In this document: positions 9,816-64,000 of the stretch, piece after piece
Layout of the letters: each line of letters begins with the position of its first letter
Position numbering within the stretch: position 1 is the stretch's first letter
Source: a virus
Lineage: Duplodnaviria; Caudoviricetes
IMG/VR virus record: IMGVR_UViG_3300028888_000134
Coordinates: 1,831 to 65,830 of that record
Reading direction: 5' to 3' (one strand)
Length of the DNA: 64,000 nucleotides
The notes under the pieces: generated by a model
What the model was told of the DNA's origin: nothing
Database searches by the model: none
What the model saw: only the letters and a program-made list of their open reading frames with translations
Program-made: the position numbers and the translations under genes

Positions 9816-11048
9816 TTATGCTGCCTTTTTATCTTGTTTATAATTATCAAGATATTTTTGTACCATATCTTTAGTGATATTTAAACTTACTTTTTTCTCA
9901 TTATAACCACCATAATCAAACATTAGGTCAGCAAGAACCTTATCAAGCACACCTCTCAATGCCCTTGCACCAGTTTTCTTTTCAGAAGCATTCTTTGCAA
10001 TAAGCCTAAGTGCATCTTCATCAAAAGTCAATTCAATATTATCAATCCACATCATTTTCTGATATTGCTTAATGATTGAATTTTTAGGTTCTGTAAGAAT
10101 TTGATATAATTGTTCCTCAGTAAGAGGTTTGACATGTGTTACAAGCGGAAATCTTCCAATAAGTTCTGGAATAAGTCCAAATTTTTTAAGGTCTTCTGTT
10201 GTGATGTCAGAAAGCAAATCTTCTTCAGAACTTTGTTTTCCGTCAGTATTGAAACCTAACGTTCTTTTGTTCTTTCGTTTCTCAATAATCTTATCAAGTC
10301 CTTCAAATGCGCCAATACCAAAAAACAAAATATTTGTTGTATCAACTTCAATACATTGTTGTTCAGGATGTTTTCTCCCGCCATTTGGTGGAACTTGCAC
10401 TTTATGTCCTTCAACAAGTTTAAGAAGTGATTGCTGTACACCCTCACCGCCAACATCACGGGTGATTGATGTATTTTCACCTTTTCTTGAAAGTTTGTCA
10501 AATTCATCAAGCACAATAATCGCATGTTGTGCTGCTTGTACATTGAAATTGCAATCACGTAATGCTCCAAGCACACAATTTTCAACATCATCTCCTACAT
10601 AACCTGCTTGTGTCATACTTGAAGAATCACTGATATAGAAAGGTATGTTTAGATATTTTGCCAACATTCTTAACATAAACGTATTATGACTTAAAATTCC
10701 ATTTGTATAATATTTATGTTTACTTTCTTTACACAATTCAAAATCATACATATTTTCTGTTGTATTGGTTTTTTCTATTGATACGATTTCTTCTATCCCA
10801 TCACATGTAATGATTTTGTCTTTCTCTTTTAATTCATCAACAAACATTTCTTCGTTTTTTTCATTAAAAACAATATGTTTGTCTGCACATTCAAGAATTT
10901 TGTTTGTTGTTTTAATTATGTACTTTTCATATGGTATTGTTTGATGCAAATTAATAACATCAACAAAACCTTCATCGGTCATAATTTGTAAATCTTCTAA
11001 TTTCCACGTTTTTGTAAATTTTTTTAATGTTTGTTCTGATTTTTGCAT
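9816..11048 (-). CDS. clpX: Split-intein IntC (122 aa) fused to ClpX C-terminal extein
   Basis: Intein block B (ECADKH), block F (MYDFEL), block G (YYTNGILSHN), then T-FMLRMLA, QAGYVGDDVE pore-1, IIVLDEFDKL Walker B, RDVGGEGVQQSLLK, GGRKHP, LGF loop, TGARALR. Confidence 0.93.
   Translation of the reverse strand: MQKSEQTLKKFTKTWKLEDLQIMTDEGFVDVINLHQTIPYEKYIIKTTNKILECADKHIVFNEKNEEMFVDELKEKDKIITCDGIEEIVSIEKTNTTENMYDFELCKESKHKYYTNGILSHNTFMLRMLAKYLNIPFYISDSSSMTQAGYVGDDVENCVLGALRDCNFNVQAAQHAIIVLDEFDKLSRKGENTSITRDVGGEGVQQSLLKLVEGHKVQVPPNGGRKHPEQQCIEVDTTNILFFGIGAFEGLDKIIEKRKNKRTLGFNTDGKQSSEEDLLSDITTEDLKKFGLIPELIGRFPLVTHVKPLTEEQLYQILTEPKNSIIKQYQKMMWIDNIELTFDEDALRLIAKNASEKKTGARALRGVLDKVLADLMFDYGGYNEKKVSLNITKDMVQKYLDNYKQDKKAA
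10683..11048 (-). mobile_element. IntC half of atypically split mini-intein
   Basis: 122 aa from the initiator Met to terminal His-Asn; +1 residue is Thr; no endonuclease domain. Confidence 0.88.
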
Positions 11049-11157
11049 AATAAAAAATTTTTACATTGTTCAATTATTTGTTCTTTTTGATTTTTATAAT
11101 CATTTTCCCATATTATGAGTTCTTCGAAACAAATATTGGCTGAACAGGCAATATATT

Positions 11158-11262
11158 TCAAATATTATTATTCAACAATTTTATCAAATCACTGATTTTC
11201 AATGTTTTAATCTCATTTGTTTTTTTGTTTTTTAATATAATTTCCGTATTCTCCGAAACGCA
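11158..11262 (-). mobile_element. IntN half (34 aa) of atypically split intein
   Basis: Starts with Cys1 immediately after the Walker A Lys: [34 protein letters not shown]-stop. Confidence 0.88.
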
Positions 11263-11550
11263 CTTTCCGCATCCAGACGGACCTGCACATATAACATTCG
11301 ACTTCTCAATAGTGACATCTTTGAAAGGATTGTCTTCAATGTCATTAGTGAAACCGTAAATCGAATCACAAAAACGTTTGTAATGGTTGTAAACCGCAAC
11401 GGAAATCAATTTTTTGGCTTCCTCTTGCCCAATCACATGTTGATTAAGGTAATCATACAAATGTTTTGGTGTCACAACATTCATCATTTCACGCATTTGT
11501 TTCTTGATTTCCTCAATTTCTTCTTTTTGCTTGTCTGTATTGTTTACCAT
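11158..11550 (-). CDS. clpX: ClpX N-terminal extein fused to split-intein IntN
   Basis: [33 protein letters not shown] ... [16 protein letters not shown], then CVSENTEII... and TGA. No N-terminal C4 zinc domain. Start moved to ATG 11550, downstream of a Bacteroidetes-type promoter. Confidence 0.92.
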
Positions 11551-11581
11551 ATTTTTTAATGATTTATTGATTTTACGTTTG

Positions 11582-11613
11582 CAAAGGTATGTATATTTTT
11601 TGAAACTACCAAA
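11582..11613 (-). promoter_or_regulatory. Bacteroidetes housekeeping-type promoter for clpX
   Basis: Minus strand TTTG-N20-TACCTTTG matches the TTTG-N19-21-TAnnTTTG consensus. Confidence 0.75.
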
Positions 11614-11655
11614 TGTTTTGATATTTATTTTTGAGGTATTTTGTTTTTTTAACAA

Positions 11656-26321: not shown

Positions 26322-26372
26322 CATTAGTTTTTTGGAACGTTAATGATATTTATAATAAAATGGTATTGTATT

Positions 26373-28379
26373 ATGGAACGTAAACGACTTGAAAAGTTAA
26401 TAGGAAAGGCTAAAAAAATACATGGTGATAAATATGATTATAGTAAGTCAGATGTACCCACATGCAAAGACAAAGCAATTTTTATATGTCCCATACATGG
26501 TGAATTCGAACAGACATGGGATAATCATATAAATGGTAAAAGCGGTTGCCCAAAGTGTACAAAATGTCATAAATACACCAATGAAGAATGGATTGAAGAA
26601 GTATCAAAAAAACATAAGAACAAATATGATTACAGTAAAACACATTATACCAAAGCAAAAGATAAGGTAATAGTGATATGTCATAAAAAGGATGAGTTTG
26701 GTGATGAACATGGTGAGTTTGAAATAAGGGCAGGAAACCATATGGCAGGTGTAGGATGCCCTAAATGTGCCAAAAAATATCGGCCAACAACAGAAGAATG
26801 GATAAAAAGAGCAAGAAAGGTTCATGGTGATAAATACATTTATGATAAAGTACAATATACTTATTCAGATAAAAAAGTTTGTATTATTTGTCCAGAACAT
26901 GGTGAATTTTGGCAAGAAGCAACATCACATTTAAGTGGTGTTGGTTGTCCAAAATGTAATGGTGGTGTTGAACTTACAACAGAAGAATATATTAACAAAT
27001 TAAAGAAGGTTCATGGTGATAAATATGATTACTCAATGGTTAAATATGTAAATGCTAAGAAGAAGATTGATATTATTTGTCCGAGACATGGTGTATTTAA
27101 ACAATTACCTTATCAGCATTTAAAAGGACAAGGTTGTCCTAAGTGTAAATCCTCTAAATTAGAAAATATATTGATGGGTTTATTTGAAAAGAATAATATA
27201 AAATATACTTATCAATATAAGATAGGTGCGAACAAAAAATTATCTTGTGATTTTTTCTTAGATGAATATAATATTGTTGTTGAGTGTCAGGGTGAACAAC
27301 ATTTTATCCCTACTTCATTTGATAGTGATAAAAGTGAAGATAAATGTGAAAAAAGTTATGAGAAAGTTTTAGAATATGACAAATTAAAATATGATATGTG
27401 TATAAATAATGATTTGGAAATCATATATTTTACCATACCTAAATATTTTAATTCAAGTGATGTCAAAATTGATACTGAATTTTATTCAGATAAGATATTA
27501 ATTACAGATACTAAAAAACTATTGGAATATATTTCTTCAAAAGAAAAGGTCAAAATCTGTGATGGCTTTAGTGAATTTTACAAAGACATAAGAAAAAATA
27601 TCAATAAAAATATAATTAACATTAACGGTATTATTAGATATAAAGACTATGTTGTAATTTATGTTCCGCTTATTCCCAACAAGCGTAATGAACTAAATGA
27701 TAAGAGAAGACATTATGCAAAAAGGGGATATAAAGTAATAATAGTGTTTGAAGATGAATATATAAACAATAGGAAAATTGTATTATCTAAAATAAGACAT
27801 TTATTTAAATTAGATAAAACATCAAGAATTATGGCAAGAAAATGCACGGTGAAACCAATCGGAAAAAGTGATGCTGAAGTTTTTCTTAATAGTAATCACA
27901 TACAGGGCTTTGTTAATTCAAGTATATATTTGGGTGCATATTATAATAATAGTTTGGTTGCTGTAATGTCATTTATAAAAGAAACCAATAACAATTGGAA
28001 TTTAACACGATTTGCATCAGATAACAATTATGTTTGTTGCGGTATTGGTGGCAAATTGTTTAAATATTTTACAAGGAACTATGATTTTAACACTGTAAAG
28101 TCTTTTGCAGATAAAAGATGGACTTATGACACAAAGAAAAACATATATTTGGACTTGGGTTTCAAGCAAGAAAAAAATATGATGTCAGAATATCGTTATA
28201 TTAAAAATGGAGAAAAAATAAGGCATCATAAGTTTGGGTTTAGAAAACATTTATTATCAAAAAGATATGGATTAGATATTAATCTTACAGAAACAGAAAT
28301 GACAAAGGAATTAGGTTATGACCGTATATGGGATTGTGGGTTAATAAAGTATGTTTATAGTAATCCTAAATTAGACTAA
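26373..28379 (+). mobile_element. Free-standing Hef-like homing endonuclease gene
   Basis: Four HGDKYDYS...C...HGEF...H..G.GCPKC zinc repeats, a PD-(D/E)XK/Vsr-like domain (CDFFL...VVECQGEQH), and a C-terminal NHIQG...RFA...FADKRW...RIWDCG domain. Confidence 0.85.
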
Positions 28380-58835: not shown

Positions 58836-60449
58836 TTAATCATCATTTTCTTCAGTTTCAAAAGTTTTATCCAATATATCATAAATAGTACCAAGTTTGA
58901 TTCCCCATTTTTTTGATTTAAAAATTCCTGTTTGGAAATCCTCATCAATAATATTTAGCAATTTATCAGGTAATATACCATTTTCCACCAATTCATCAAC
59001 ATCAGATTGTTTTAAGTTGTTGATAATGTTATCATATAATTCAATTTCTTTTTTTACATCTTTATTTTTTATTTGTTCTTGTCTTTCAATATAATCATTT
59101 TTGATTTCATCCCAATTCATACCGTCAATATTTTCAATATATGTTGGTACTTTATTGATTGATAGCCAAAATTTAATTTCTTTATCTTCCATTGTCATCA
59201 ATGCTTCATAAGTATCCTGATCTGTTATATTAAATGGTTGACCCGATACCAATTTACATTCTTCTTCAGTGAAACTTTTCCTATCTTTTGGATTTGAAAT
59301 TAAAATATTGTCTATTTCCTTACCTTTTTCATTAATCGTTGTCCTTACATTCCTGTCAAACACAACCAATAACGGTTTGATACGCTTGTTAAACATTTCA
59401 ATGTATTTTGCACGATTATATTCAAAATTTTCATCACAATAATGGTCTTCTTCGTCCTCAACAAGGTCATTTGACAACATTACACAGTTGAAAATTATCT
59501 CATCTTCATCAAAAATTGTTATATTTTTACCTTTAAATAGATAATTATTAGCAAAATCAAGCCTTGATTTAGCAAATTCAGAATCTGAATACTCTTTATA
59601 GTATTTTTTATACTCTTTTTCAATGTATTTTGTTAAAGAAATGACATTTCCTTTTCTGTCAAGCAGTTTTTCGCCATTTTCATCAGTTGCATAATCAATT
59701 TTTTTACCCTTTTCGTCAAGATAATAATACTTTGTGACACGTTTCACGTCACTTTCACCTTTCTTATTACCAGTATTGATGAAATATACCGAATCCCCCA
59801 TGTTTACATTGAGATTTTCCTTTATTGCAAGTTCATACCAAGCCTGTCTTGCTCTTTTTGTACCCGCTTTTGTCACTTCCTTGCATTTTTCCTTTTTTTC
59901 CCTTATACTTTTCTTTATTTTTCCAACAGAAGCAATGTCCTTCAAGGGAATTTGCATGTTGTATATCTTCTCAATATAATCATAATAGTATTCAATGAAC
60001 TCTTTGCCCTTATTATGAAGCAACAATTTTGCCGCTTCATTGATGAATTTCTCGATATAAATTGGCATTTTCTTCGATTTTAGGGTATTGCCAACCATTT
60101 TTATTTCTCCATTATCCAAAAGGTCAAGATAATTCTTTCTGGCACAAGTTATGTTTGATGGAATAACCTCATCTTCGTCTAATCCCATTTTTCCTCTCAT
60201 AAAAAGGTCATTGAACTCCATAATGTCACCCCACTCATCACAATATTCCTTACCCTTTTCAACAAGACGGTTCAACCCTTTGCCAATGTAAGGATGTTCT
60301 TTTGTATATCTGAACTCATTTGGCATTTGGAAATTGAATCCATCCGTATTGCTTAAAATATTGAGTCCTAATGCGTTTACAACAGTACCATCAAGACTTA
60401 TATCAAATACATATTCATTTGATTGGTAGTTTACTATTTTACTTTTCAT
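58836..60449 (-). CDS. polB: Split-intein IntC fused to C-terminal part of family-B DNA polymerase
   Basis: After 34 intein-like residues ending ILSN comes TDG (second half of motif C, DTDG), then RKNY, GNTLKSKKMPIYIEKF palm/thumb motifs. Confidence 0.85.
   Translation of the reverse strand: MKSKIVNYQSNEYVFDISLDGTVVNALGLNILSNTDGFNFQMPNEFRYTKEHPYIGKGLNRLVEKGKEYCDEWGDIMEFNDLFMRGKMGLDEDEVIPSNITCARKNYLDLLDNGEIKMVGNTLKSKKMPIYIEKFINEAAKLLLHNKGKEFIEYYYDYIEKIYNMQIPLKDIASVGKIKKSIREKKEKCKEVTKAGTKRARQAWYELAIKENLNVNMGDSVYFINTGNKKGESDVKRVTKYYYLDEKGKKIDYATDENGEKLLDRKGNVISLTKYIEKEYKKYYKEYSDSEFAKSRLDFANNYLFKGKNITIFDEDEIIFNCVMLSNDLVEDEEDHYCDENFEYNRAKYIEMFNKRIKPLLVVFDRNVRTTINEKGKEIDNILISNPKDRKSFTEEECKLVSGQPFNITDQDTYEALMTMEDKEIKFWLSINKVPTYIENIDGMNWDEIKNDYIERQEQIKNKDVKKEIELYDNIINNLKQSDVDELVENGILPDKLLNIIDEDFQTGIFKSKKWGIKLGTIYDILDKTFETEENDD
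60348..60449 (-). mobile_element. IntC half (34 aa) of a split intein
   Basis: MKSKIVNYQSNEYVFDISLDGTVVNALGLNILSN/T: block F (YVFDIS) and block G ending Ser-Asn, with +1 Thr. Confidence 0.8.
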
Positions 60450-60461
60450 ATTTTTTGCGTT

Positions 60462-62327
60462 TTAAAAATTATTTTCCCATTTATATACTTTTGTTCCACA
60501 ATCATATATTCTATACCATTTTTGTCGTTTGCAAAACTCTCGTTCTGTTATGTTATTTGGACAATTATATTTTTTTTGCAATATGCTTTTTCTAAAATTG
60601 AAACGATTCTTTCTGACTGTTCCTATAATATAAAAGTAATTAGGTTTTGAAAAATGTGAAAAATTAAATCCTAATTTTTCATACAAATTTCCAATAGACC
60701 ATCTTCTATCAGCATAACTCACAACGGATTTTGGGTTATATATTTTAATAAAATGTTTAAATAACTTACTTGCTCCACCTATTACATTTGTGTTAAGTTT
60801 ATTACAGAATCTTAATAATTCATATTCTGTTTCTCCATTGCCAATAAAATGTCTAGATTTTCCAAATGTCATTAAAGAAACTAATTCTTCATTATAATAT
60901 AAACCTAATTTAATTTGACTTGCACACCATCCTTGAATATGATTGTTCTTTAAAAATAAACTTGCTTCACTATTATCAACTTCTTTTATTTTACACTTTC
61001 TTGCAAATATTTTGATTTTGGTTAAACCTAAAATATTGTCTAACATAGATATCCATATTTTAGATTTGTGAAGCCACTCATCTTCAAAAATGTGAATTAA
61101 TCTAATGCCTTGTTTTTCACATTCAAGAGTTTTGTTAAGATGATATTCTTTTTCTTTCTTTAATTCACAATGCCAATATAAACCATCATATTCGATTGCA
61201 ATATTTTTTTCTGGTATGAAAATGTCTAATTCATTTCCCTTTAATACTTTTCTGTCATTTGCTATTGTGTTCGGAAATTTTTCTTTAATGTATTCATATA
61301 TTTTATTCTCATTAACTGAATAATTTAAATTATGGTATGGACACCCATGTCCCTGTAAAAATGAATTTGCTTCGACTTCAAATTCTCTTCCACAATCATT
61401 ACACCTTATCTGAATTTTTTCATCTGATGAAATATACTCTCCAATAACAGTATATAAATCACCATATAGTCTTTTTACATCTAACTCAAACTGTGCTTGT
61501 GTTTTAGTTTTATTTTGTGATATGCTTAATTTGCTACATTTTGGACATCCATTATATAGTTTGCTATATAAAAAAGCACCAGGTGTTCTTTCAAATATAT
61601 TCCCACAACAATTGCATTTAAATTTTAATTTTGTTGATGTGTTTAAGTATTCTTCCTTATTAACGACATCAATATTCGGATATTTTTCTTTTAAAAACTT
61701 TTCAAAATCAGAAAACGATTTCTTTTTAAAATCACCATTATGAGAACGTCCACATTTTTGACAAATATCATTACCGTTAAATAAATCACTTATATATTTT
61801 TCATATACACCATGTTTAGCACATAACAACTCTACTTTATCACTGTTTTTATTTTTAAAACCATCAAATGGAATAATTTCATTTTTTGTGTATAATTTTT
61901 TTAGTTCTTCATAACTTATCTGTTTTCCTTTCTGTTTTTCACAATTACAGCCTCCATAAGCAGAAGTGATAAAATCACACGCAACTTTTGTAAAAACATT
62001 ACCGCATAGATTGCATTTTACAGTAATTTTGTTATGACTTCCTTTGTATTCTTCATCTATATATGGAAATGAATATCTATCACCAAACCTTTGTTTGGAT
62101 TTTTCAACAAAAGAATAATTAGTTTTTCTTTCTTTATAACAGCATTTTGGACAACCATGCCCTAATAAATGATTATGTGGTGTCTGTTGAAAACGAGTTC
62201 CACATTCAGTATGTGTTATCCACATTTTTTCTTTTGTGTTAACATAAGATTTTTCTTCATAGATATAATCATCCCCATGTATCTCTTTTGCCTTTTTAAG
62301 GAAATCTTCAAATGATAATCTTTTCAT
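60462..62327 (-). mobile_element. Hef-like homing endonuclease gene upstream of the polB C-half
   Basis: CxxC/GCPKC zinc repeats, ELDIFIPEKNIAIEYDGLYWH nuclease core, NHIQG...ELLRFCNKL...RIYDCG tail. TATTTATA (-) at 62353-62360. Confidence 0.85.
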
Positions 62328-62450
62328 AATAAAATTTTATTTGTGTTATATCTATAAATATATATTTGAGGCAAAAAGTTCATCAAAATCTGATTTTATG
62401 TTACATATATAGTGTTTATTGTTTAAATAACAAAATAATAAATGCTAATT

Positions 62451-64000
62451 TTACTTAAAATTCCATTTATAAACCATTGTTCCACAATCATAAATTCTAT
62501 ATATTCCTTTTTCCAACATTATTTCGTGTTCGGTTTTATTTTTATCAAAACCTTGTTTAATCAGTTGTCCTTTTCTATATTTAAAACGGTTTTCACGTTC
62601 TTGTCCAAATATGTAGAAATAATTTGGTTTACTATCGTGTGTGTGTAGAAAACCTAATGTTTCATATAAATTACCAACAGACCATCTTTTATCCGCATAT
62701 GTTATTATTTCATTTGGTTTTATATCATCAATAAAATGTTTTAATAATTTACTTGCACCACCAATAACATTGGTGTTCAATTTATTACAGAACCTCAATA
62801 ATTCATATGTATTATTATAGTCTTTGTTGTATTTTCGTTGTTGTCTTGTGTGTCCGAAAGTCATCAGACTTACTAATTCATCATTATAAAATAGACCATA
62901 ATGATATTTTGCTTTACATCTGCCTTGTATGTGGTTTTTATCAAGAAATTCCATTGCTTCCTTTGATGAAACGTCTTTTACATTACATTTTCTTGCAAAT
63001 ATCCTATTTTCGGTATATTCTAAAATATTCCTTAACATTGACTTTATAATATCTGAGTGTTCCAACCATTCGTCTTCGAATATATGAATAAGTCTGATTC
63101 CTTTATTTTTACACTCATTTGTTTTTATAAGATGATAGTTTTTATCCCTATTGAATTTCTCAGAGTGCCATATAAGACCATTGTATTCAATTGCAACATT
63201 TTTAGAAGGTATGTATATATCAAGTTCTTTATTTTCGGATAATATATTTCTTACTCTTTGTTTTACATTATCTTTACCTAAAGTACTACAACAAAAATCA
63301 TATATTTCACTTTCACCGTTTGATATTATCTTAGCACAGTGAGGGCAACCTTGTCCTATTAAATGATTTCCGGGTGTCTGACAGAATTCACCGTGTACGG
63401 GACAGATTATACACACCTTGGTAGAATTGTTTTTATATTCAACCTTTGAGTAATCATATTTGTCACCATGTATTAATTTTGCCTTATAAATAAAATTCTG
63501 AAGTGTATCTCGTTGTGCGTTGTCCGTTCTATTTCTTGCACATTTTGGACAACCTTGTGGATTTGTTTTATGTAAGTGGTTATCTGGTGTCATCCAAAAC
63601 GAACCATGTTCATTACCATATTCATCCTTTTCGTGACAGATTATTTCGATTTTCTCATAACACTTTGTATATACTGATTTAGAATAATCATATTTATCAG
63701 AGTGTACTTCCTTTGCTTTATTTAAAAACCACTCGTTAGTGTGTGTCTTTGATAAAGATGATTTTTCATAACGACATTTTGGACATCCCTGACCTTGCAG
63801 GTGTTTTTGTGGTGTTTGTTCGAAATCTATATTATGTTTATTACAATGAATTATACCCTTTGTTTTTTTGTTTATAAAGTTAAAATTATCATAACTGTAT
63901 GCTTCTTCTCCATGAATCTTTTTTGCTTCTGCAATGAACAGTTCCTTTGTCATATATTTACCATTACATTTAGGACAACCATCACCTCTTTTTAAGTGAC
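62451..64000 (-). mobile_element. Second Hef-like homing endonuclease gene, 5'-truncated by the window edge
   Basis: Frame stays open to 64000 (HLKRGDGCPKCNGKY-MTKE); ELDIYIPSKNVAIEYNGLIWH core; same C-terminal domain. Confidence 0.85.

Follow-up and report, generated by a model that had tools for sequence, protein, structure and literature searches.

The 64,000-nucleotide stretch of DNA analysed here (the window) covers bases 1831-65830 of a 65,830-base IMG/VR viral record and ends, at position 64000, where that record ends. Its last part appears to hold the downstream two-thirds of a 'fractured' family-B DNA polymerase (PolB) gene, a layout in which the polymerase is encoded by two genes carrying the two halves of a split intein; we assign this reading a probability of about 0.85, and the layout is real and probably functional. 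A single open reading frame (ORF) of 537 amino acids (aa), at 58836-60449 on the minus strand, contains in one frame the C-terminal half of the intein (IntC) and the C-terminal half of the polymerase, and two homing endonuclease genes, E1 and E2, lie immediately upstream (Table 1). The source is a large rumen or gut phage: CheckV rates the completeness of the window's record at 18%, which implies a phage genome of several hundred kb.

The 537-aa ORF starts with MKSKIVNYQSNEYVFDISLDGTVVNALGLNILSN|TDGF (the bar marking the splice junction) and continues TDGFNFQMP, its IntC ending in ...YVFDISLDGTVVNALGLNILSN before T35-D36-G37. The original prediction, made from the letters of the DNA, had proposed a 34-aa IntC ending in SN and followed by the TDG of motif C, and both parts hold in the translation, where the IntC runs from M1 to N34. 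Intact orthologues read ...P(I/L)VGD|TDGFNF... at the break, and their VGDTDG aligns with YADTDG of the 9N PolB, which identifies both Asp residues of motif C (DTD). Since the intact relatives read VGD|TDG at the very point where the window switches from intein to polymerase, the break lies inside the catalytic motif C, which is consequently divided between two records, T35-D36-G37 being in the window and the first Asp being the last N-extein residue (...LVGD) on the overlapping record described below. Judged from this alignment, the insertion point is the classical pol-c intein site, whose allele YGD|TDS is used by archaeal PolB inteins and by the Mimivirus intein and is also the break point of the split PolB of Nanoarchaeum equitans (PMC549080).

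The identity of the C-half is not apparent from routine annotation. No match to the 537-aa ORF was obtained in sequence searches of Pfam, PHROGs, NCBIfam or the PDB, a profile built from 32 C-half sequences had no match in the PDB, and tblastn of the C-half against deposited phage genomes was equally empty, which left the fold search as the one route to an identification from the window's own ORF. The ORF's AlphaFold model (mean predicted local distance difference test score 81.8, with residues 1-41, and so the IntC on its own, disordered) matches the palm and thumb of the KOD, 9N, RB69, HSV, pol delta and pol alpha polymerases with a Foldseek probability of 1.00, at E values from about 7e-6 for the best match to 5e-4 and over 130-160 aligned columns. 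Relatives of the C-half were collected from viral contigs (102 loci) and from metagenomes (183 loci, no contig of that scan being 100% identical), and an all-against-all HMMER comparison gave 383 proteins at E up to 1e-3, many of which are 1,050-1,650 aa long and match the query only by their C-terminal part. The nearest relative, L007, is an uninterrupted polymerase of 1157 aa that is 84-86% identical to the C-extein and carries the Pfam domains PF03104 (DNA_pol_B_exo1) and PF00136 (DNA_pol_B); it aligns with archaeal PolB structures at E about 1e-15, with LVGDTDGFNFQMP opposite their motif C LYADTDGLHATIP. The C-extein also possesses a KxY-type motif (R104-K105-N106-Y107) as well as the thumb, and T35, D36, G37, R104, K105 and Y107 are invariant across the 32 C-half sequences. 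On the evidence of the model and of these relatives, the C-half belongs to a family-B DNA polymerase, of which it forms the palm end and the thumb. Past the part aligned by Foldseek, it extends for another ~300 aa (window 58836-59730(-), residues ~240-537), a C-terminal extension that is conserved and confidently modelled.

The other half had to be sought elsewhere: because window position 64000 is the last base of the record, sequence past it cannot be read from that record, and the N-half was not found there. At the nearest syntenic locus, L008, which shares 90% DNA identity with the window over E2 and E1, E2 has 569 codons and starts 56 nt past the IntN stop, and from this layout the window's record was expected to break off about 220 nt before IntN. 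A search for an exact match to 34 nt from the window's end led to a viral record of 48,551 bases (G006; locus L175). The final 139 bases of the window overlap the first 139 of this record; the last 126 bases of the overlap agree throughout, and a single indel lies 13 nt from the end of G006. The 54 codons missing from E2 are read on this record at L175:140-299(-), followed by a 46-nt spacer and then, on the same strand, by an ORF of 837 aa (L175:355-2865(-)) and a stop. This ORF matches PF03104 (5e-11) and PF00136 (2.7e-10), both above cut-off, and consists of a 651-residue polymerase N-half ending ...RPLVGD and a 186-aa N-terminal intein half (IntN), SFTGDTPLFIKEKETGYINIKPIS...YRHKTDKTIY...VTEDHSLF...FVAGYNFIQC, which opens with SFTGDTP and has both the Ser1 nucleophile of block A and the T-E-D-H of block B. 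From these matches, the 3'-5' exonuclease domain and polymerase motifs A and B are present on the overlapping record, outside the window. The IntN-bearing N-half predicted to lie beyond position 64000 was therefore recovered once that sequence was inspected. Its details departed from the forecast of an xD-C junction and an IntN of about 100 aa, as the N-extein ends in GD followed by Ser1, with no Cys1, and the IntN is almost twice as long. Identity to L007 is 84.5% for the N-extein of G006, in line with the value for the window's C-extein, and no polymerase C-half was found on G006. The window's record and G006 are most probably neighbouring contigs, either of a single phage or of near-identical strains, and assembly probably failed at the zinc-finger modules, which are repeated in the endonuclease genes.

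Comparison of related loci revealed that the site, always between D and T of GD|TDG, may be empty, filled by a contiguous intein or filled by a split one. In the split relatives, the N-extein ORF runs 175-192 codons past GD before it stops, with the pattern S(F/V)T.DTP...YRH...TEDHSLF..., and between the IntN stop and the IntC ORF lie one to three members of the E1/E2 endonuclease family, on the same strand. This order, from N-half and IntN through the endonuclease genes to IntC and C-half, is borne by a single contig at each of L008, L091 and more than 15 other loci. The contiguous alleles are 355-358 aa long, with Ser1, TEDH, a LAGLIDADG_3 domain and a ...HN|T end (for example ...YVYDISANGTFVNALGMIVCHN|TDGFNF in an orthologous polymerase). 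Residues 13-34 of the window's IntC align with the last 22 residues of these LAGLIDADG inteins, that is, with blocks F and G, which in the window read YVFDISLDG and LNILSN. In the PDB, a profile of the contiguous alleles scores best against PI-PkoII, the pol-c intein of KOD (E 2.6e-7); archaeal VMA inteins and the Aes123 PolB1 split intein (9HTH, E 1.8e-5) are matched as well, and the match to the Neq Pol IntC, NEQ528, is weak (E 0.34). Block G of the window's IntC retains the terminal N34 and the nucleophile T35. Throughout the split and contiguous alleles, the Asn-Thr junction is kept with one exception (Gln for Asn), and the block F Asp is kept in all IntC alleles.

Conservation also bears on whether the halves would splice. 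Among 34 distinct split IntN sequences, whose median pairwise identity is 49%, S1, D5-T6-P7, R64-H65, T84, D86 and H87 are at least 97% conserved, and conservation is 0.76 in the core (residues 1-112) versus 0.35 in the tail; R64-H65 is the Arg-His 'NX' motif described for Ser1 inteins (PMC10189870). From this pattern we infer that the intein halves splice. Several points weigh against the fractured-gene reading as a whole. Pfam, PHROGs and the PDB hold no sequence-level match to the C-half, and tblastn found no relative of it among deposited phage genomes. The link between the window and G006 is a 139-nt overlap with an indel, which could come from a near-identical strain and thus from a different molecule. 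An IntN of 186 aa is unusually long, splicing is predicted here from sequence, and the penultimate His of block G is replaced by Ser33 in the window. Most split alleles have Ser, Lys or Asn at this penultimate position, and the contiguous alleles have His. Cyanobacterial DnaE split inteins likewise end in SN, and a penultimate His is not universally required.

The lost His (LSN), the long IntN and its degenerate tail would suit halves that no longer splice and merely hold two polymerase chains together as a non-covalent clasp, a role that has reportedly been proposed for the split NrdA of phage Aeh1. Non-splicing two-chain PolB enzymes are moreover known in T4-like phages, according to work cited in PMC2677866. 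We nevertheless consider such a clasp unlikely, because the residues needed for splicing (Ser1, the NX Arg-His, TxxH, the terminal Asn and Thr+1) are kept across the 34 IntN and ~40 IntC sequences, and because the break falls between the two Asp of the DTD hairpin, where ~220 extra residues would be hard to fit. We hold it to be more improbable still that the C-terminal piece is a dead remnant of an endonuclease invasion in a phage replicated by another polymerase. The window's record is a fragment, at 18% completeness, on which another polymerase is neither ruled in nor ruled out; against a relic stand the open 537-codon frame with 59 columns invariant across 32 relatives, the intact matching N-half on the neighbouring record, and the occurrence of split and intact alleles on near-identical polymerases. 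A relative of 392.8 kb, rated 100% complete, has the split polB as its only polB, and four other large records each have exactly one polB N-half, the split one; being the sole polB, the split gene is the working polymerase gene of those relatives and no relic, which removes support from the notion, raised in the original prediction, that an intact polB elsewhere might reduce the locus to one. Finally, a split created by mis-joined contigs in repeated endonuclease sequence is scarcely credible: the contig does break inside E2, whose zinc-finger modules recur in a paralogue within the window, but the same gene order stands on single contigs in dozens of independent assemblies and a sister locus was recovered gap-free from four runs of four studies.

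If the gene is fractured as we propose, two precursors would be produced, PolB-N (651 aa) fused to IntN (186 aa) from G006/L175 and IntC (34 aa) fused to PolB-C (503 aa) from the window. The intein halves would associate into a HINT fold and splice in trans: Ser1 would attack the preceding peptide bond, the N-extein would be passed onto the hydroxyl of Thr+1 (T35), Asn34 would cyclise, and an O-to-N shift would yield a polymerase of 1154 residues with a whole motif C (GD-TDG). The endonucleases encoded between the halves would cut intein-free alleles during co-infections, whereupon the whole cassette would be copied in. The ancestor of the split form would be a contiguous LAGLIDADG intein at the pol-c site, into whose endonuclease domain a free-standing endonuclease gene inserted itself.

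This proposed origin is consistent with the composition of the split IntN. Over its first ~112 residues it is homologous to the splicing region at the N-terminus of the contiguous alleles (E 1e-19 to 1e-29), and its last ~75 residues align with part of the second LAGLIDADG half, without the catalytic motif of the latter. The IntN is thus 186 aa long, rather than ~100, because it carries the vestige of a LAGLIDADG domain, and such a vestige agrees with the model of Dassa et al., where a free-standing endonuclease gene enters an intein at its endonuclease domain. The element also appears to move. In a C-extein tree of 119 rows, four site states are thoroughly mixed, with ~40 state changes and with different states even in near-identical polymerases (L139 split and L158 intact; L029 split and L162 intact; L009 versus L093). 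The DNA identity of the window to L008/L091 is 90-92% in the endonuclease genes and 72-78% in the C-extein, and the window is a mosaic: the intact L007 comes closest to its extein, L008 to its endonucleases and the L011 type to its IntC. The polymorphism of the site and the excess of endonuclease identity over extein identity point, indirectly, to site-specific cleavage of the element-free allele by the endonucleases, and suggest that these enzymes are active and target the pol-c site.

E1 begins with treble-clef zinc-finger repeats, has a Vsr-like (EDxHD/Hef-type) nuclease at its centre and ends in a GNAT/Mom-like domain. In Pfam it matches DUF4379 and CapR above cut-off and, weakly, Mom and MTES_1575; NCBIfam has no name for E1 or E2. 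A profile of 17 family members matches the nuclease domain of I-Bth0305I (3r3p) at E 1.9e-6, with D368 and E379 invariant and H386 and D416 at least 90% conserved. I-Bth0305I is the prototype of the Vsr-like 'EDxHD' family, which was first predicted in fractured genes (PMC2677866, PMC3239194). Tandem Hef-like genes upstream of the IntC ORF had been part of the original prediction. The label is sound, since 'Hef-like homing endonuclease' is the annotation that GenBank homologues carry, those of Bacillus phage AR9 and Tenacibaculum phage PTm5 among them, and Taylor et al. 2011 place Hef-type enzymes in the EDxHD family; both genes are real, and the amendment concerns E2, which the window holds only in part. 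E1 shares 86.6% identity with its positional counterpart in L008, and E2 is 93% identical to its 569-aa L008 orthologue over residues 55-569 of the latter. The IntC ORF is presumably co-transcribed with the endonuclease genes. A third family member of 678 aa (26343-28379(+)) stands alone, outside any broken gene and directly after an ORF of 629 aa that could, at a guess from its sequence, encode the major capsid protein. The zinc-finger modules of this paralogue share 71-96% DNA identity with E2 in short stretches, a repetition that is probably why the contig broke inside E2.

Table 1. Parts of the polymerase locus in the window (window coordinates) and positions of related alleles with a stop just after TDG (coordinates of the respective loci).
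Feature	Coordinates	Strand	Basis or remarks
IntC (intein C-half), 34 aa, M1-N34	60348..60449	-	Translation; aligned with the C-terminal 22 aa of contiguous inteins and with ~40 distinct split alleles
PolB C-extein, 503 aa and stop	58836..60347	-	Thr+1 codon ACG at 60345-60347, then D36-G37 of motif C
Spacer, 12 nt, from E1 stop codon (TAA) to IntC ATG	60450..60461	-	Sequence
E1, free-standing homing endonuclease, 621 aa	60462..62327	-	phrog_559, E 7e-157
Spacer, 123 nt, AT-rich, E2 to E1	62328..62450	-	Sequence
E2, homing endonuclease, 5' open at contig end	62451..64000	-	phrog_559, E 5e-136; 515 of 569 codons in the window
Stop-after-TDG alleles	L009 ~660; L022/L030/L043 ~10065-10110; L032 ~640; L091 ~4710; L090, L092, L103, L105, L109, L145

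The closest precedent for this layout is the set of fractured genes described by Dassa, London, Stoddard, Schueler-Furman and Pietrokovski in 2009 (PMC2677866), which are likewise phage-borne genes of DNA metabolism broken by a split intein with a free-standing, same-strand endonuclease gene between the halves, half of the loci having the Vsr-like endonuclease family seen here, and for which the authors' model is the invasion of an intein by an endonuclease gene. The window and L175 together present the defining arrangement, with N-extein/IntN, endonuclease and IntC/C-extein adjacent on one strand. The text of that study contains no PolB term, so that PolB apparently lies outside its eight host enzyme types, and the IntN it describes are 88-105 aa long with Cys1, as opposed to 186 aa with Ser1 and a LAGLIDADG vestige. 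Two further differences are the tandem pair of endonuclease genes and the survival, in relatives, of contiguous LAGLIDADG alleles at the same site.

Other PolB genes are interrupted in comparable ways. The PolB of N. equitans (NEQ068/NEQ528) has a natural split intein at the same pol-c position (PMC549080) and without a catalytic cysteine (PMC10189870), but it is archaeal and thermophilic, its halves are unlinked and no endonuclease gene lies between them (Choi 2006, as cited in PMC2677866). Phage PolB genes split by a Ser1-type intein occur in Aes123 (PolB1; T4-like Aeromonas phages, PMC11923092) and in the jumbo phage MIJ3 (PMC6892783), the latter with a homing endonuclease gene between the halves and with a block B (VTEDHS) and block F (VYDIG) that resemble those reported here. 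Both phages differ from that of the window in lineage and polymerase clade, in keeping with the empty tblastn search of deposited phages with the C-half; the Aes123 IntN has 120 aa, the MIJ3 endonuclease is of the HNH type with a +1 Ser, and the insertion site of both may differ from the pol-c site occupied here. Contiguous pol-c inteins, such as PI-PkoII (PDB 2cw7) and that of Mimivirus PolB (PMC549080), share the D|TD point, Ser1, Thr+1 and LAGLIDADG, but are unsplit and have no free-standing endonuclease gene. PolB16 OarG, from a sheep gut metagenome, is an atypically split PolB intein inserted after GDTD|S (PMC10189870). In the gut jumbo (Jug) phages, polymerase genes are often split by endonucleases, according to PMC12880540, the main text of which describes neither intein halves nor their site. 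Given these split PolB inteins and the layout of Dassa et al., the locus is one more member of a published class. A tight clade of split alleles from human gut assemblies (L113-L123, on contigs up to 326 kb), which may be these Jug phages, has a distinct IntC, IVYDIQLDGT...NVAHN|TDG, that retains the penultimate His.

For phage biology, the locus would exemplify an essential replication gene that outlives invasion by selfish elements through protein splicing. The successive evolutionary stages coexist in close relatives, from the empty site through the contiguous LAGLIDADG intein to the split intein with its vestige and one to three endonuclease genes, and this coexistence lends direct support to the gene-breaking model of 2009. 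Natural split inteins that lack a catalytic cysteine and are active at moderate temperature are very rare (PMC10189870, PMC11923092), and gut and rumen phages offer dozens of natural Ser1/Thr+1 split variants for protein engineering. For annotation, a C-half that Pfam and PHROGs miss means that such genomes appear to be without a complete polymerase.

A second split intein with a +1 Thr was also announced in the original prediction, and two candidate halves of it can be read in the ClpX region of the window (9816-11655(-)). ClpX is split there in Walker A: the upstream ORF reads GPSGCGK|CVSENTE..., with a 34-aa Cys1 IntN and a stop, and the next ORF has ~122 aa ending GILSHN, followed by |TFML.... 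The sequences fit an atypically split Cys1/Thr+1 intein, which could serve as an orthogonal partner of the polymerase intein.

Some of the sister alleles present a further peculiarity. In at least 12 distinct split alleles, all from relatives and not counting the window's own, the IntC frame runs into a stop directly after TDG (...N-TDG-stop), and the C-extein picks up again behind a second Gly codon, across a gap of 5 nt (GGT TA GGT), 8 nt (GGC TGA AT GGT) or 9 nt (GGC TAG TTA GGT); one such junction reads GAT GGC TGA AT GGT TTC. The ~500 codons downstream are open, and these alleles are scattered across the extein tree. All 24 take-off and landing Gly codons are GGC or GGT, and uninterrupted alleles have GGA or GGG in 16 of 37 cases. 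The L030 junction was recovered, unchanged and gap-free, from DNA runs of three studies, one of them the study of its source run, and from an RNA library, runs of partial coverage with short contigs being counted only where a contig bridged the junction. The arrangement makes this junction a candidate programmed stop-hop or frameshift. The simplest common reading would be a programmed short 'stop-hop' of peptidyl-tRNA-Gly at the splice junction, to which we give slightly less than an even chance. Two other routes were considered and set aside, namely re-initiation past the stop, where the ATG lies in another frame and lacks conservation, and a -1 slip by tRNA-Gly, for which re-pairing on UGG would be poor. 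A 2016 review knew of no natural short stop-hop (PMC5009743); if real, the hop would be a short-range natural counterpart of T4 gene 60 bypassing carried by a homing cassette, and the window allele would provide the hop-free reference state for direct comparison.

Two unrelated split alleles, L119 (~10064-10075) and L160 (~10070-10080), have the same one-T insertion after the Gly codon of TDG, reading GGN TTT CAA CTT as compared with GGN TTC AAC TTC. A +1 shift on UUU-C would be needed to restore the frame, and both assemblies are of low coverage, so that a sequencing error is possible.

Introns were encountered in the same polymerase genes. No Rfam RNA family was matched in the window at gathering score. 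At L050:10299-10603, a group I intron (RF00028, 70.6 bits) interrupts the C-extein ~85 codons past the splice junction, just before FSRKNY, and L048 and L055 have an insert at the same place that matches nothing in Rfam at gathering score. The polymerase gene of some relatives thus contains an intron in addition to a split intein and endonuclease genes.

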